Shown: in pieces, positions 2,541 to 11,948 of the stretch
How the letters are laid out: every line of letters starts with the position of its first letter
Position numbering within the stretch: the stretch's first letter is position 1
Source of the DNA: Elusimicrobiota bacterium
GTDB taxonomy: Bacteria; Elusimicrobiota; Elusimicrobia; UBA1565; UBA9628
Assembly (NCBI GenBank): GCA_035606075.1
Contig: DATNGC010000158.1
Coordinates: 1 to 17,159 of the forward strand
Direction of reading: 5' to 3'
Length of the DNA stretch: 17,159 nucleotides
Notes under the pieces: generated by a model
The model's database searches: none
Seen by the model: only the letters and a program-made list of their open reading frames with translations
Told to the model about the DNA's origin: nothing
Program-made: the position numbers and the translations under genes

Positions 2541-2828
2541 TTACTTCTCTAAGCGGATCGCGATGCGGTCCAGGTACTTCTCGAGGTCGTCGTGCGGGCG
2601 CGGGATCACGTGCACCGCGATCAGTTGGCCCACTTTGGAGGCGGCCGCGGCGGCGGCGTCCACGGCGGCGCGCACGGCGCCGACCTCTCCGCGGCACAGG
2701 GTGGTCACCAGGCCGTCCCCGACCTTCTCGTAGCCGAGCAGGCGCACCTTGGCCGACTTGCCCATCGCGTCCGAGGCCTCGATCATGCCGACGAAGCCTT
2801 TCGTCTCCACCATTCCCAGAGCTTCCAT
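2541..2828 (-). CDS. BMC-H shell protein (single Pfam00936-type domain, PduA/EutM-like), copy 1
   Basis: This 95-aa protein is [57 protein letters not shown]...VHVIPRPH. It is the only meaningful part of the 511-aa Arg-rich track ORF 2541..4076. A good SD sequence (aaggaga) lies upstream. Confidence 0.9.
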
Positions 2829-2839
2829 GCGTTTCTCCT

Positions 2840-3148
2840 TTACTCGAACTCCTCGTCGGTCAGGCCGCGGTCCTCGGCGCCCGTCTCCAGGACCGCGTTG
2901 CAGCGCGTGCAGCGCCGCGGGGTGCTGTACGTCCGCACGCAGGCGTCGTCCTCGGGCCACCACTCCTCGAAGAACATCTCGACCTTCTTGTGGCACTTGA
3001 GGCAGAACTTCTCCAGCCCCGCGCCGCAGCCCGCGCAGAACTTCGGCAGCGGCTGCCCCTCGTGGGTGTGCATGATCGCGGCGCACGCCCCGCACTGCAG
3101 GTCGATGGTGATCTTGTACTTCGCCGGCTGCTTGTCGTCTTTGGCCAT
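2840..3148 (-). CDS. small Cys-rich protein with four CxxC motifs (putative double zinc ribbon) and an acidic C-terminal tail; unknown function
   Basis: This 102-aa ORF has CxxC pairs at C19/22, C38/41, C49/52 and C80/83. The third positions are G/C-rich. It is tightly packed between deoC and BMC-H, and an SD sequence (agaggga) is present. Confidence 0.6.
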
Positions 3149-3160
3149 ATCTGGGTCCCT

Positions 3161-4156
3161 CTAGTAGCCCTTCCCTTCCGACTTGGCGTCCGTCACGATG
3201 GCGACGCTCGCCGACGTGCCGAGGCGCGTCGCTCCCGCGGCGATCATTTTCGCGGCGCCCTCCGCATCCCTGATACCGCCCGAGGCCTTCACGCCCATCA
3301 GGGGTCCGACGGTCTGGCGCATGAGCTTGATGTCCTCGACGGTGGCGCCGCCGCCGCCGAAGCCGGTCGAGGTCTTCACGAAATCCGCGCCGGCCTTCTT
3401 CGACATGGCGCAGGCGCGCACCTTCTCCTCGTTGGACAACAAGGACGTTTCTAAAATGACCTTGAGCACCTTGCCGCGCGTCGCCTCGCGCACGGCCTTG
3501 ATGTCGTCGTAGACGACGACGTCGTTGCCGGACTTCAGCGCGCCGATGTTGATGACCATGTCGATCTCGTCGGCGCCGTTGGCGATGGCGTCGCGGGCCT
3601 CGATGGCCTTGACGGTCGGCGTCGTCGAGCCGAGCGGGAAGCCGACGACGGTGCAGACCTTGACGCCGGAGCCGCGCAGGTACTGCGCGGAGAGCGCGAC
3701 GTAGGACGGGTTCACGCACACCGAGGCGAAGCAGAAGCTCCTGGCCTCCTCGCACAGCTTGGCGATCTCGTCCGCGGTGGCGTTGGGCTTGAGCATGGTG
3801 TGATCGACGTAGCGGGCGGTGTTGTTGCCCTTCTTGGTCGGGTTGCACACCGAGACGCGGTCCGCGCCGGCGGACTTGATCAGGCGGTCGTCGACATGCT
3901 CGTCGTCGTCCTCGTCGGCGGCGCCGGCCTTGGGCGGCAGGGCGGACAGCGCGCCCTTGCCGGGCGTCGCGGGCTTGGCGCCCCAGTCGGCCGCGCCGGA
4001 GAAGGTCTTGCCGGCGGCGCCGATCGTGGTCTTGACCTCGCCCTTGAGGGGCTTGGGGCCGCTCTCGCACTGGCACGCGCCGGCTTTCAGGAAGCCCTTG
4101 GCGGCCAGCGCCTTGACGACTTCCTCGACGACGGTCCGCAGCTGAGCTTCATTCAT
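3161..4156 (-). CDS. deoC: deoxyribose-phosphate aldolase (DeoC family) with ~110-aa N-terminal extension (amphipathic encapsulation-peptide-like helix plus G/A/P/K-rich linker)
   Basis: The C-terminal ~220 aa match DeoC (YVDHTMLKP...[11 protein letters not shown]...GFPLG...EIDMVINIG...KTSTGF...KASGGIR). The N-terminus [23 protein letters not shown] resembles BMC cargo targeting peptides. Confidence 0.85.
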
Positions 4157-4445
4157 ATTTTTTCACCTTTCCGCCGGAGACGACCGAGTCCACGATGCCC
4201 ACGATCACGGTCCGGATCGGCGCCTTGTCGTCGTGCAGCACCGAGCGCGCCGACCCGCCCTCGTCCATCACCAGAACGATCGAGCCCGGCCCGGAGCCGG
4301 TCACGTACTCCACGGCCATCTGCGCGTCGCCGAGCGGCTTCTCCGTCTGTGGATCGATAGGCCGCACGAGGAGAAGGCGCTTGTCGCACAGAGAGCAGTG
4401 CTTGCGCGTCCCCCACACGTTGCCGACGACTTCCGCTACAAACAT
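4149..4445 (-). CDS. BMC-P vertex pentamer protein (EutN/CcmL/PduN family), copy 1
   Basis: The protein reads [16 protein letters not shown]...LLLVRPI...[20 protein letters not shown]...IVGIVDSV. Its last 8 nt overlap the deoC start (ATGAATGA). Confidence 0.85.
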
Positions 4446-4455
4446 TCTTAATCTT

Positions 4456-4671
4456 TCAGCCGGCGAGAGCGACCTCGAACGGCTTTTTCTTCAAATTGCT
4501 GATCTTCAGAACCGAAAACCCGAGCACACGGCCCTCCGCATCGACTTTTTGCATGACTTGCTCATGTTTTGTCTCGCGAAAATAACCGGGTGTCTTGGAA
4601 TCGAACAGGACTTCGAGAAAATCTCCTTCAGGATCGAACCACACCTTCATCCTCGCTTTCACTTTGGCCAT
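4456..4671 (-). CDS. DUF2283-like small protein (putative antitoxin partner)
   Basis: This 71-aa protein is MAKVKARMKVWFDPEGDFLEVLFDSKTPGYFRETKH...GRVLGFSVL, the DUF2283 pattern (MK..YD.E.D.LYI). The real start is the ATG at 4671; the longer 152-aa track ORF has a junk N-terminus. It overlaps the upstream gene by 13 nt. Confidence 0.55.
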   Translation of the reverse strand: MAKVKARMKVWFDPEGDFLEVLFDSKTPGYFRETKHEQVMQKVDAEGRVLGFSVLKISNLKKKPFEVALAG

Positions 4672-10434: not shown

Positions 10435-10446
10435 GTTCTCTCCTTG

Positions 10447-10507
10447 GGGTCAGGCTTTGACTTTTTGACTTATTCGGTGAATAAGTCAAAAAGTCAAAGC
10501 CTGACCC
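10447..10507. repeat. 61-bp perfect palindrome (29-bp arms, 3-nt centre), AT-rich, between pduL and BMC-H
   Basis: The sequence is gggtcaggctttgactttttgacttattc-ggt-gaataagtcaaaaagtcaaagcctgaccc. The arms pair perfectly, and each contains two TTGAC(T) units. It ends 8 nt before the SD of the BMC-H gene, and no U-tract follows on the transcribed strand. Confidence 0.8.
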
Positions 10508-10511
10508 TTCT

Positions 10512-11147
10512 TTAAGCTATGTGCACGAAATCGCCGGTTTTGATGCCGGCGGAGTTGGCCTCGTCGGTGTCGACGTGGAACTCCAGGCTGTACTTGTCCG
10601 AAACGCGGACGATGCAGTCTTCGAAAACGGTGGAGCGTCCGCCGCCGGTGCCGCAGCGCACGCGCACGAGCTCGCCGCTGGTCATCCCCCACTTCTTCGC
10701 CTCGTCGGGCGAGAAATGGACGTGGCGCTGGGCGATGATGACGCCCTCTTTGATCTCGACTTTGCCGGCCGGGCCGATCAGGATCGCGCCGGCGGACCCC
10801 TTCACGTCGCCGGATTCCCGCACGGGGGGCTTCAATCCGATGGATATAGCGTCGGTCACCGCGAGCTCGATCTGGGTATTGGCGCGATACGGAGCCACCA
10901 GGCGGACCTTCTTCACCACTCCCTTGGGCCCCTGCACGTCGATGAGTTCCTCGGCGGCGTAGAAGCCGGGCTGTTTGATGTCTTTGACTTTCTTGGGGGA
11001 AGCCGCGGCGCCGAACAAAATCTTGAAGTGAGCCTCGGTCAAGTGACAATGTTTATTGGACACGCCGACGGGGATGTCGAGCTTGGAGCGCTGGAGGCGC
11101 TTCTCGATCTCGGAGGCCAGCCCGGCGATCTGCGTCGGGGAGATCAC
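10512..11147 (-). CDS. pduL: phosphate acyltransferase PduL (two PF06130-type repeats) with N-terminal encapsulation-peptide-like helix
   Basis: The protein has ...VGVSNKHCHL...QPGFYA...TDA..IG..P.R.SGD..GS.G..L.GP.G...AQRHVHFSPDEA...DTDEANSAGI. The likely start is GTG 11147, giving MISPTQIAGLASEIEKRLQRS, and it overlaps the tpiA stop (GTGA). The 596-aa track ORF is mostly wrong-frame junk upstream of this. Confidence 0.85.
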   Translation of the reverse strand: MISPTQIAGLASEIEKRLQRSKLDIPVGVSNKHCHLTEAHFKILFGAAASPKKVKDIKQPGFYAAEELIDVQGPKGVVKKVRLVAPYRANTQIELAVTDAISIGLKPPVRESGDVKGSAGAILIGPAGKVEIKEGVIIAQRHVHFSPDEAKKWGMTSGELVRVRCGTGGGRSTVFEDCIVRVSDKYSLEFHVDTDEANSAGIKTGDFVHIA

Positions 11148-11911
11148 GCGGGCTTGAACCCCATGATGCGCAGGAATGCGTCCTTCTTGAGGCTCGCGCC
11201 GCCGACCAGCGCGCCGTCCACGTCGGGCTGCGCCATCAGCGAGTCCACGTTTTCGGCCGTGACCGAGCCGCCGTAGAGGATCCGGATGCCGGACGCGAAA
11301 TTCTTGCCGTGCAGCCGCTCGAGCTGCTGGCGCGTGAACAGGTGCGCCTCCTGCGCCTGGGCCGGCGTGGCCGTCTTGCCCGTGCCGATCGCCCAGACCG
11401 GCTCGTAGGCGATGACGACCTTGGAGAGGTCGGCGGGCGCGAAGCCCTTGAGCCCGTTTGCGATCTGCGTCTCCAGCACGCGCCACGTCTTCTGCGTCTC
11501 GCGCTCGTCGAGCGTCTCGCCGATGCAGACGACGGGCGTCAGGCCCGCCTTGAGCGCCGCGCCCAGCTTCTTGTTGACGTTCTCGTCGGTGTCCCCGAAG
11601 AGCTTGCGCCGCTCCGAGTGGCCGATCAAAGTCATCGCGCAGCCGGCGTCGAGCAGCATGTTGGCCGAGATCTCGCCCGTGAACGCGCCCGACGCCTCCC
11701 AGTAGACGTCCTGGGCGCCCAGCCGCACCGGGCTGCCGCGCAGGACCTCGGCGACCACGGTGATGGCGGTGAAGGGCACGAAAACGGCGACCTCGCCGGA
11801 GGCGCCGGCGGCGCCGTCCTTGACCGCCCGGGCCAGCTCGACGGACTGGGCGAGCGTCAGGTTCATCTTCCAATTTCCGGCCAACAGGGGGCGGCGCAGA
11901 GGGGAGCTCAT
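11144..11911 (-). CDS. tpiA: triosephosphate isomerase
   Basis: The protein has ...RRPLLAGNWKMN...IGHSERR...VVCIGE...YEPVWAIGTGKTA...ILYGGSV. The ATG at 11911 gives MSSPLRRPLLAGNWKMN. The track ORF extends to GTG 11947, so the start is ambiguous within 11911-11947. Confidence 0.9.
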   Translation of the reverse strand: MSSPLRRPLLAGNWKMNLTLAQSVELARAVKDGAAGASGEVAVFVPFTAITVVAEVLRGSPVRLGAQDVYWEASGAFTGEISANMLLDAGCAMTLIGHSERRKLFGDTDENVNKKLGAALKAGLTPVVCIGETLDERETQKTWRVLETQIANGLKGFAPADLSKVVIAYEPVWAIGTGKTATPAQAQEAHLFTRQQLERLHGKNFASGIRILYGGSVTAENVDSLMAQPDVDGALVGGASLKKDAFLRIMGFKPA

Positions 11912-11929
11912 GGGTTCTTTCGGGTCCTT

Positions 11930-11948
11930 TGTGGACATATTGTCCACA
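11930..11948. promoter_or_regulatory. perfect 8-3-8 inverted repeat TGTGGACA-TAT-TGTCCACA (candidate operator) between the promoter and the tpiA RBS
   Basis: This exact palindrome lies ~20-40 nt downstream of the predicted transcription start and ~20 nt upstream of the tpiA ATG at 11911. A near-identical copy occurs at 14901..14919. Confidence 0.55.

Follow-up and report, generated by a model that had tools for sequence, protein, structure and literature searches.

The window analyzed here (i.e., the whole 17,159-nucleotide stretch of contig DATNGC010000158.1, assembly GCA_035606075.1) carries an operon of bacterial microcompartment (BMC) genes from an Elusimicrobiota metagenome-assembled genome (MAG). 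This operon is very probably a typical, intact locus of SPU1, one of the catalogued types of sugar-phosphate-utilizing (SPU) microcompartments. A preliminary description of the same DNA had recognized an SPU-class metabolosome, and this identity is upheld by the presence of the aldolase DeoC, RpiB, an acylating aldehyde dehydrogenase (AldDH) and BMC-P genes. The range it had given, 2541-11948, holds for the most part and requires correction at both ends: one further conserved gene (2525..2262) very probably belongs to the operon, and the right border, set at a presumed GTG start of tpiA at 11947, is misplaced, given that the true start is the ATG at 11911 and the GTG sits within a palindrome of the leader.

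Gene content and assignment to SPU1

The GC content of the window is about 0.67, and all genes are on the minus strand. Reading frames were set by the GC content of third codon positions, and start codons by comparison with relatives. The related loci considered are L001-L005, L082-L089 and one JGI contig. The named genes are each backed by a Pfam or NCBIfam match, mostly a very strong one. The native genes of the operon are listed below from high to low coordinates.

11144..11911, minus strand: tpiA, triosephosphate isomerase (TPI), 255 aa (PF00121, 2e-92; ATG at 11911, MSSPLRRPLLAGNWK)
10512..11147, minus strand: pduL, phosphotransacylase (PTAC; PF06130, 5e-67; domain from residue 26)
10138..10434, minus strand: BMC-H1, with KAAD and PQPH interface motifs (PF00936, 2e-27)
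9807..10118, minus strand: BMC-P1, pentamer protein (PF03319, 7e-32)
8349..9800, minus strand: AldDH, acylating aldehyde dehydrogenase (PF00171; NCBIfam PRK15398, 567 bits against a cut-off of 403)
7321..8349, minus strand: aldo-keto reductase (AKR), 342 aa, no extension (PF00248, 2e-74)
6765..7316, minus strand: BMC-T, tandem, PduT-like (two PF00936 domains)
6315..6764, minus strand: rpiB, RpiB-like protein, no extension (PF02502, 2e-48)
6043..6318, minus strand: BMC-P2, pentamer protein (PF03319, 2e-20)
4149..4445, minus strand: BMC-P3, pentamer protein (PF03319, 3e-20)
3161..4156, minus strand: deoC, deoxyribose-phosphate aldolase (DERA), the signature enzyme (TIGR00126, 2e-88, residues 113-321; PF01791)
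2840..3148, minus strand: CxxC protein, 102 aa, with four CxxC motifs and a near-invariant fifth Cys
2541..2828, minus strand: BMC-H2, with KSAK and PRPH interface motifs (PF00936, 1e-26)
2262..2525, minus strand: 87-aa protein, beyond the range first described (match to the C-terminus of TIGR02536, eut_hyp, 7.8e-5)

The shell-protein profile searches of the window proteins returned matches to PF00936 and PF03319, and the shell set is exactly the one described before, with two BMC-H, three BMC-P and one tandem BMC-T. DeoC, RpiB, the acylating AldDH, PduL, TpiA, the AKR and the four-CxxC protein were likewise each found, the enzymes through Pfam or NCBIfam. No match to the diol dehydratase PduCDE, to EutBC or to a glycyl-radical enzyme was obtained among the 25 proteins scanned, which speaks against a PDU, EUT or GRM type.

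In the catalogue of Sutter et al. (2021, Nat Commun 12:3809, Supplementary Data 2), SPU1 comprises 62 loci, from Elusimicrobia only. The type is defined there by pfam01791 and pfam02502 adjoining two BMC-P genes, and by an AldDh, a PTAC, a pfam00121 isomerase and a BMC-P triplet. Its two BMC-H paralogues are described as having charge-complementary interfaces (KAAK/PRPH versus KAA(N/D)/PQPH), and its BMC-T proteins as PduT-related and free of the pore cysteine. Dwyer 2024 (PMC11585597) adds that SPU1, SPU4 and SPU7 have no BMC-Tdp, that a PTAC is present in almost all SPU1 loci and that TPI is prominent in SPU1. Among microcompartments, the DeoC-family aldolase pfam01791 is unique to the SPU class.

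The window agrees with this profile. Both the PTAC (PF06130) and the TPI (PF00121) lie within the main locus, and the best relatives of its DeoC, AKR and CxxC proteins are found in Elusimicrobia MAGs; the window's own annotation reads Elusimicrobiota bacterium (locus tag VN915). The SPU4 profile does not fit, since TpiA has no N-terminal encapsulation peptide (EP) and the host belongs to Elusimicrobiota and not to Firmicutes. The gene order tpiA-pduL-H1-P1-AldDH-T-rpiB-P2-P3-deoC-CxxC-H2-small gene-pilT recurs in L001, L002, L082 and L083, with 45-99% protein identity, and synteny is partial in L003, L004, L084-L089 and the JGI contig. Gene identities, motifs, synteny and conservation are direct observations. 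Gene order and a 55-99% identity to Elusimicrobia loci of the SPU1 type stand in for a placement of the shell proteins and AldDH in the trees of the catalogue. Given this feature-by-feature match and the synteny, the locus is very probably a member of the catalogued type and not a new SPU variant.

The preliminary description regarded the enzyme complement as unusual, with tpiA and the CxxC gene as additions and the AKR standing where an alcohol dehydrogenase (ADH) is normally found. The comparison does not bear this out. TPI and PTAC are part of the SPU1 definition, and tpiA is the first gene in every SPU1 relative covering the region. The CxxC gene is a conserved SPU1 gene that lies downstream of deoC in ten of the eleven loci covering the position; in L086, a gene of the inositol-phosphatase family stands between the two. 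At least four more SPU1 loci carry the AKR at the equivalent place, and SPU1 loci are normally without an ADH, hence it does not occupy the place of one.

Shell, cargo and proposed pathway

The motifs of BMC-H1 and BMC-H2 are charge-complementary, in line with the SPU1 description, with KSAK one position off KAAK. The three PF03319 proteins share 30-45% mutual identity; P2 and P3 are neighbors in every relative, and in the window only an inserted islet of low GC content parts them. When BMC-T is aligned with PduT (structure 3PAC), an Ala is found at the Cys position of the TICPGK stretch, a cysteine that we take to be the Fe-S pore ligand of PduT. The Pfam scan of the window found no other BMC-domain gene, and no BMC-Tdp. 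Three BMC-P paralogues and two charge-complementary BMC-H hexamers would make up the shell together with one PduT-like BMC-T, which would be structural and have no Fe-S pore.

DeoC scores 295 bits against the cut-off of 117 of the deoC equivalog model (TIGR00126), shares up to about 65% identity with bona fide DERAs, and has the residues D199, K261 and K290 of DERA, which are invariant. Its N-terminal extension of 111 aa consists of an amphipathic helix (the first 24 residues are conserved), a CxC motif, a TxGxAGKxF motif, a variable segment and then one more conserved motif. This extension is conserved in six relatives, and among the DeoC relatives obtained from 185,579 species genomes it occurs in full only in Elusimicrobia MAG loci. 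An extension of a helix plus strands has been reported on all SPU DERAs (PMC11585597). The extension (window 3825-4156) is more than a simple helix and linker, with the CxC at residues 28-30 and a VCxPTKK motif near the domain border. In the more distant relatives L001-L004 it has an added HTGGxxCPxC motif, in whose place the sub-clade of the window has an acidic DEDDDEH stretch. These cysteine motifs hint at a metal site or a structured mini-domain.

N-terminal extensions were also found on PduL and AldDH. In PduL, an EP-like helix of about 20-25 aa stands directly before the PTAC domain (segment IAGLASEIEKRLQR, hydrophobic moment 0.60) and is kept in the relatives. AldDH starts with MQSEEIARVIAEVLKRLEKE. 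With a hydrophobic moment of 0.84, its helix IARVIAEVLKRLEK ranks first in the operon. Ten loci share the stretch MQSEEIARIV.EVLKRLE, after which comes a Pro/Ala/Ser linker that varies in length. The model that identifies AldDH, PRK15398, carries the name "aldehyde dehydrogenase" only. The 87-aa protein has a conserved EP-like N-terminus (MLTRDDLIDLLVAGL), a variable Pro/Ala-rich linker and a conserved C-terminal domain of 45 aa, which resembles the end of the ethanolamine-utilization family TIGR02536. Its orthologues follow BMC-H2 in L001, L002, L082 and L083, and genes of 80-106 aa occupy its position in L086, L088 and one further locus. It is probably a fourth EP-bearing component. The earlier statement that only DeoC, AldDH and PduL bear extensions is therefore correct within the range first considered, where TpiA, RpiB and the AKR have none, and misses the 87-aa protein at 2525..2262.

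The start of tpiA was fixed by comparison with L082, L083, L085 and L005. The PF00121 domain begins eight residues after it, which leaves no N-terminal extension. Two upstream starts that would give a short N-terminal tail, GTG 11947 and ATG 11938, were rejected because they lie inside the conserved palindrome of the leader and because the equivalent ATG of L082 is out of frame.

In the RpiB-like protein, comparison with structure 3HE8 places D65 at the catalytic Cys65 and F67 at a Thr, and both substitutions are found in all SPU1 relatives; the change from Cys to Asp has been reported for the ribose-5-phosphate isomerases (RPI) of all SPU types (PMC11585597). For SPU6, the same work reports a DERA active on deoxyribose 5-phosphate (dR5P; Km about 0.1 mM), an RPI without isomerase activity on ribose 5-phosphate (R5P), and a stable DERA-RPI complex (PMC11585597). 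The preliminary description had placed TpiA, RpiB and the AKR outside the shell. All three do lack an extension, but for RpiB this location is doubtful given the published complex, and by analogy with SPU6 the RpiB-like protein would most likely be encapsulated piggy-back through DERA.

What is said here on encapsulation, substrate, fluxes and regulation we infer from the sequence and from the SPU6 work. The lumen chemistry proposed earlier, in which dR5P is cleaved to acetaldehyde and glyceraldehyde 3-phosphate (G3P) and the acetaldehyde is converted to acetyl-CoA and acetyl-phosphate, is the published SPU model (PMC11585597). In the reading preferred here, N-terminal amphipathic peptides would recruit DERA, AldDH, PduL and probably the 87-aa protein, and the RpiB-like protein, catalytically crippled and peptide-free, would most likely be carried in by binding to DERA. 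dR5P would enter the shell, where DERA would release G3P and acetaldehyde. The EP-tagged AldDH and PduL would turn the acetaldehyde into acetyl-phosphate, recycling CoA, and G3P would leave the shell to be handled by cytosolic TpiA. A cytosolic AKR would most likely scavenge escaped aldehydes, i.e., acetaldehyde, or methylglyoxal or glyceraldehyde derived from triose phosphate.

A relative without a microcompartment separates parts of this system. Of the genes of the locus, L005 (CAIQSZ010000045.1, 1895-4165) has only tpiA, deoC, the CxxC gene and pilT, and it presents no shell genes, pduL, AldDH, rpiB or DERA extension. Its identity with the window is 86% for tpiA and 87% for the CxxC protein, and its DNA aligns with the window on either side of two clean deletions. 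One of them covers pduL through BMC-P3 together with the N-terminal extension of DERA, and the other covers BMC-H2 and most of the 87-aa gene. L005 looks like a natural loss of the microcompartment in which DERA and the CxxC protein were retained together. Given the DERA extension was lost exactly where the shell was lost, this is counted in favor of a role of the extension in encapsulation.

The CxxC family comprises 46 clusters, all of Elusimicrobia origin where a source is named. The eight cysteines of the CxxC motifs are invariant, and one further motif of 18 residues is largely so. An AlphaFold2 model built from 37 sequences is all-beta and of moderate confidence (pLDDT 76.6); the Foldseek comparison of this model with the PDB yielded nothing better than E = 0.7, hence no function can be deduced from the fold.

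The AKR was found between AldDH and BMC-T in L082-L085 (four of four orthologues whose context was read) and is absent from that slot in L001-L004 and L086-L088. Its orthologues form 27 clusters (75-94% identity), of which all that are named come from Elusimicrobia. Its distribution marks it as an accessory gene that recurs in one SPU1 sub-clade. Its best NCBIfam matches, all far below the cut-offs, are the methylglyoxal reductase YdjG, Kv-beta and the L-glyceraldehyde-3-phosphate reductase YghZ.

In three of the five AKR-bearing SPU1 loci, the AKR is preceded by a gene of the VOC/glyoxalase fold, which encodes 149 aa with a Lys-rich N-terminus (L082 9558-10004; L083 9555-10004; L085 9555-10004) and is absent from the window and L084. 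The gene has no match among NCBIfam models, which keeps a methylglyoxal role of the AKR hypothetical.

Leader, operon limits and foreign islet

The elements that bear on the transcription unit are as follows.

11977..12005, minus strand: sigma-70-like promoter, TTGACT-17 nt-TAGAAT (10/12 consensus positions; the best such site in the window)
11930..11948, minus strand: perfect 19-nt palindrome TGTGGACAATATGTCCACA in the leader, 28 nt past the -10 element and 18 nt before the tpiA ATG
2338..2366, minus strand: promoter-like site for pilT, TTGACG-17 nt-TACAAT (10/12), inside the 3' end of the 87-aa gene
2265..1171, minus strand: pilT, downstream of the operon

The single promoter of the preliminary description is supported by the sigma-70-like site before tpiA, which is kept in relatives. 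The window contains four sites of this quality, with 1.3 expected. The TTGA of the -35 element and the whole TAGAAT are invariant in six aligned SPU1 loci (the window, L001, L002 and L082-L084); L085 has TTGACT together with TAGAAT, and L086-L088 have TATAAT or TATACT at the equivalent place. The shell-less L005 also retains the tpiA promoter.

The pattern of the palindrome, TGNGGNCNNNNNGNCCNCA, has one match in the window, with 0.02 expected. Each of the ten related SPU1 loci in which the region is covered has it once between the -10 element and tpiA, and it is absent from L005. Positions 6 and 14 form an A-T pair in five of eleven loci (the window and four relatives), a C-G pair in four and a C-T combination in one, and the switch between A-T and C-G in the two arms is compensatory. 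The palindrome may be an operator or a hairpin of the 5' untranslated leader. When the leader RNA is folded the hairpin forms, with an unremarkable energy (z = -1.3), which leaves an RNA hairpin and a DNA operator indistinguishable. No regulator gene was found in the window, and the Rfam and tRNA scans of the window gave no matches.

Native neighbors overlap or are at most 19 nt apart, save for gaps of 77 nt upstream of BMC-H1 and about 150 nt upstream of tpiA; the GTG start of pduL overlaps the stop codon of tpiA (GTGA). Terminator-like sites number 16 in the window, against 13.0 in shuffled sequence, and none is prominent. At the downstream end, a 48-nt block around the promoter-like site of pilT is 92% identical in L005 despite the deletion of the surrounding gene, and this site probably marks the limit of the operon. 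With pilT on a promoter of its own, the likeliest unit runs from tpiA to 2262. It holds 18 genes, 14 native and four from the foreign islet, which corrects the earlier figure of about 20 coupled genes and leaves the idea of a single unit in place. Transcription would start upstream of tpiA, cross the palindromic leader and run about 9.7 kb to the gene ending at 2262.

Directly upstream of the operon (window 12065-14183), two mutually overlapping genes encode a secreted UshA-like 5'-nucleotidase and a protein weakly matching AphA, a class B acid phosphatase, with a hydrophobic N-terminal segment. This pair is kept upstream of most SPU1 loci, and in L087 it follows the phosphate genes PhoU and PHO4; its presence fits nucleotide scavenging. 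Conservation continues downstream with pilT, a Pro/Ala/Lys-rich repeat protein without a Pfam match (317-1168) and then, in L082 and L083, DnaA. Given this DnaA in the neighborhood of relatives, the SPU1 locus may be near the chromosomal replication origin in this lineage.

The islet between BMC-P2 and BMC-P3 comprises the following.

4446..6042, minus strand: low-GC islet of four co-directional genes, exactly between the BMC-P2 stop and the BMC-P3 start
6046..5366, minus strand: ORFan of 226 aa (183 aa as annotated)
5323..4964, minus strand: NOV_C nuclease-like domain protein, matching the C-terminal part of the PADLOC TmtA models
4979..4659, minus strand: PBECR2/DUF4258-type toxin (Pfam)
4671..4456, minus strand: DUF2283 antitoxin (Pfam)

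The GC content of the islet is about 0.49 (0.43-0.58) over 1.6 kb, against 0.65-0.68 in its flanks. No homologues of its genes were found in nine related loci, where the spacing between P2 and P3 is 2-66 nt, and a comparison with 1.8 billion representative proteins gave essentially no relatives of the ORFan. The toxin and antitoxin match the two families of the known DUF4258 (PBECR2)/DUF2283 pairs and overlap, as is usual for toxin-antitoxin genes; unlike the usual pairs, they score just above the Pfam cut-offs and are joined to a NOV_C protein and an ORFan inside a metabolic operon. The islet matches neither PHROGs nor plasmid DNA, and PADLOC matches its NOV_C protein only, so it is not called a phage, a plasmid fragment or a named defense system. 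A 10-nt direct repeat, ATTAAGAATG (5924..5915 and 4452..4443), was rejected as a target-site duplication, since by estimate 1.9 kb would hold about two repeats of this kind by chance and the drop in GC content starts at 6042 and not at 5924. The islet would be a recent, unrelated, mobile insertion of toxin-antitoxin or defense type between two pentamer genes. Given the native genes on both sides are intact, its insertion is either tolerated or recent.

Other SPU1 loci have insertions of their own. A DNA methyltransferase-like protein (DPPF motif; 305 aa) lies between P2 and P3 in L004 (5202-6119), and caspase-like proteins follow rpiB in L083 (12048-13319) and L085 (12066-13097). L082 (11594-12661 and 13104-14560) has a PDZ/Sel1 protein and two unknown genes, L002 (8576-9423) a lipoprotein and L088 (7052-7315) a bPH-like gene. 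L086 (4565-5421 and 8105-8995) has two unknown genes in the AKR slot, in addition to the inositol-monophosphatase-family gene between deoC and the CxxC gene. The junctions concerned across SPU1 loci are AldDH/T, T/rpiB, rpiB/P2, P2/P3 and deoC/CxxC, and accessory or conflict-type genes appear to have landed repeatedly in the interior of the SPU1 operon.

Competing readings, significance and comparison with known systems

Four other readings of parts of the locus were weighed. That tpiA is a housekeeping glycolytic gene which merely shares the promoter, and is no functional part of the microcompartment pathway, would explain why TpiA has no encapsulation peptide and why the shell-less L005 keeps both the gene and the same promoter. 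It is nevertheless unlikely, given the translational coupling to pduL through the GTGA overlap, the position of tpiA at the head of the operon in every SPU1 locus examined, the recurrence of TPI in other SPU subtypes, with an EP in SPU4 (PMC11585597), and the fact that its substrate G3P is the direct product of DERA. The AKR could instead stand in for the ADH absent from SPU1, reducing part of the acetaldehyde to ethanol and so regenerating NAD+ for AldDH, either in the shell or through a cofactor shuttle. Its gene lies directly 3' of AldDH with a one-base overlap (TGATG), the slot is kept in five loci, the sequence shows an apparent catalytic tetrad (D57/Y62/K87/H128) and the best NCBIfam match, YdjG, is an NADH-dependent reductase; moreover, the locus has neither ADH nor PduS, and NAD+ regeneration in such microcompartments is an acknowledged open question (PMC11626177). 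We consider this role quite unlikely, since the protein has no N- or C-terminal extension and is as long as homologues unrelated to microcompartments (e.g., a Gloeobacter protein, 342-345 aa), its NCBIfam matches all fall far below the cut-offs, seven other SPU1 loci must balance redox without an AKR, and the pairing with a VOC/glyoxalase-fold protein in three loci points to detoxification.

A substrate other than dR5P, with the DERA-like aldolase and the altered RpiB acting together on another phosphorylated sugar or aldehyde-donor pair, is very unlikely, as DeoC exceeds its model cut-off by far (295 against 117 bits), shares up to about 65% identity with bona fide DERAs and has all the catalytic residues, and as dR5P is cleaved by the SPU6 DERA (Km about 0.1 mM; PMC11585597). 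What favors it is the RpiB-like protein, which is kept in nearly all SPU types though it plays no part in dR5P cleavage and does not act on R5P, and whose active site has changed consistently (Asp, Phe) and not by random decay, suggesting a different retained function; the inositol-monophosphatase-family gene adjoining DeoC in L086 points the same way. Equal doubt attaches to the view that the operon is being inactivated, i.e., that the islet disrupts transcription or stoichiometry after BMC-P2 and the organelle is decaying. The islet does split the BMC-P pair that is "always next to each other" according to the catalogue (Sutter 2021, Supplementary Data 2), it bears a weak promoter-like site of its own (5085..5058), and L005, a close relative, has lost its whole shell, so that loss does occur in the lineage. 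Yet all native genes are full length with conserved and catalytic residues intact, the islet genes are co-directional with the operon, none of the terminator-like sites lies in the islet on the operon strand, and other SPU1 loci with unrelated genes inserted at nearby junctions are otherwise intact.

Some points weigh against the preferred reading of an intact SPU1 operon acting on dR5P. All functional statements on SPU1 and its Elusimicrobiota host are inferred. RpiB has no EP in the window or in any SPU1 relative, whereas an N-terminal EP is reported on SPU RPIs (Dwyer 2024, PMC11585597), so its encapsulation depends on the complex shown for SPU6 alone. A single-sequence AlphaFold2 prediction of DeoC (pLDDT 41) suggests only a helix at residues 3-19 and gives no useful support for the extension. 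The window has none of the genes that would supply dR5P (deoB, deoK, a nucleoside phosphorylase), and the locus encodes no partner that regenerates NAD+ (neither an ADH nor PduS with an Fe-S PduT), so that it does not by itself account for the redox balance of the lumen. Finally, BMC-P3, deoC and the genes downstream could suffer polar effects of the islet.

SPU is among the most widespread microcompartment types, and no SPU organelle has been studied in a cell, SPU1 not at all. The earlier remark that the class is experimentally uncharacterized is outdated for the class itself, given the in vitro work of 2024 on the DERA and RPI of SPU6, but holds for SPU1 and for SPU organelles in vivo. Since the locus behaves like the 62 catalogued SPU1 loci, it adds little as a new instance. 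The conserved SPU1 parts that emerge from its comparison with relatives are two proteins, the CxxC one and the EP-like one of 87 aa, as well as the promoter and the palindrome behind it; in the portions of the SPU1 catalogue text and SPU papers available to us no mention of these parts was found. We tentatively propose that the SPU1 core may exceed the catalogue by a zinc-ribbon-like CxxC partner of DERA, an EP-tagged eut_hyp-like protein and a shell-linked palindrome, with the AKR of the sub-clade, with or without the VOC protein, as a reductive or detoxifying branch. If true, this extended core would give concrete handles on the regulation, assembly and redox balance of an organelle for DNA sugars. 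The AKR bears on the management of cofactors and aldehydes in microcompartments without ADH and PduS, the insertions indicate that SPU1 operons tolerate unrelated genes at internal junctions, some of toxin-antitoxin or defense type, and the shell-loss variant L005 separates shell-dependent from shell-independent components.

In comparison with SPU1 in general, the locus shares the phylum, DeoC and RpiB adjoining two BMC-P genes, AldDH, PTAC, TPI and the BMC-P triplet, as well as the BMC-H interfaces, a PduT-related BMC-T without the pore cysteine, the absence of BMC-Tdp and EPs on AldDH and PTAC. It differs in the sub-clade AKR between AldDH and BMC-T and in the four-gene low-GC islet between BMC-P2 and BMC-P3, the latter found only in the genome of the window. 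With SPU6 of Chloroflexi bacterium GWB2_54_36 (Dwyer, Sutter and Kerfeld 2024, Commun Biol 7:1562), it shares the N-terminal helix extension and intact catalytic triad of DERA, the Cys to Asp change of RPI, AldDH and the BMC-P triplet. The features particular to SPU6 (i.e., a GntR regulator, BMC-Tdp, a single BMC-H, a C-terminal EP on AldDH and an EP on RPI) are all absent from the window, which carries both the PTAC and the TPI that SPU6 usually lacks. As in the EUT and PDU systems, an EP-bearing acylating aldehyde dehydrogenase and an EP-bearing PduL-type phosphotransacylase accompany BMC-H, BMC-P and a PduT-like BMC-T. Unlike those systems, the window has no EutBC, PduCDE, B12-related genes or alcohol dehydrogenase, and the aldehyde at the SPU1 locus would come from a class I aldolase.

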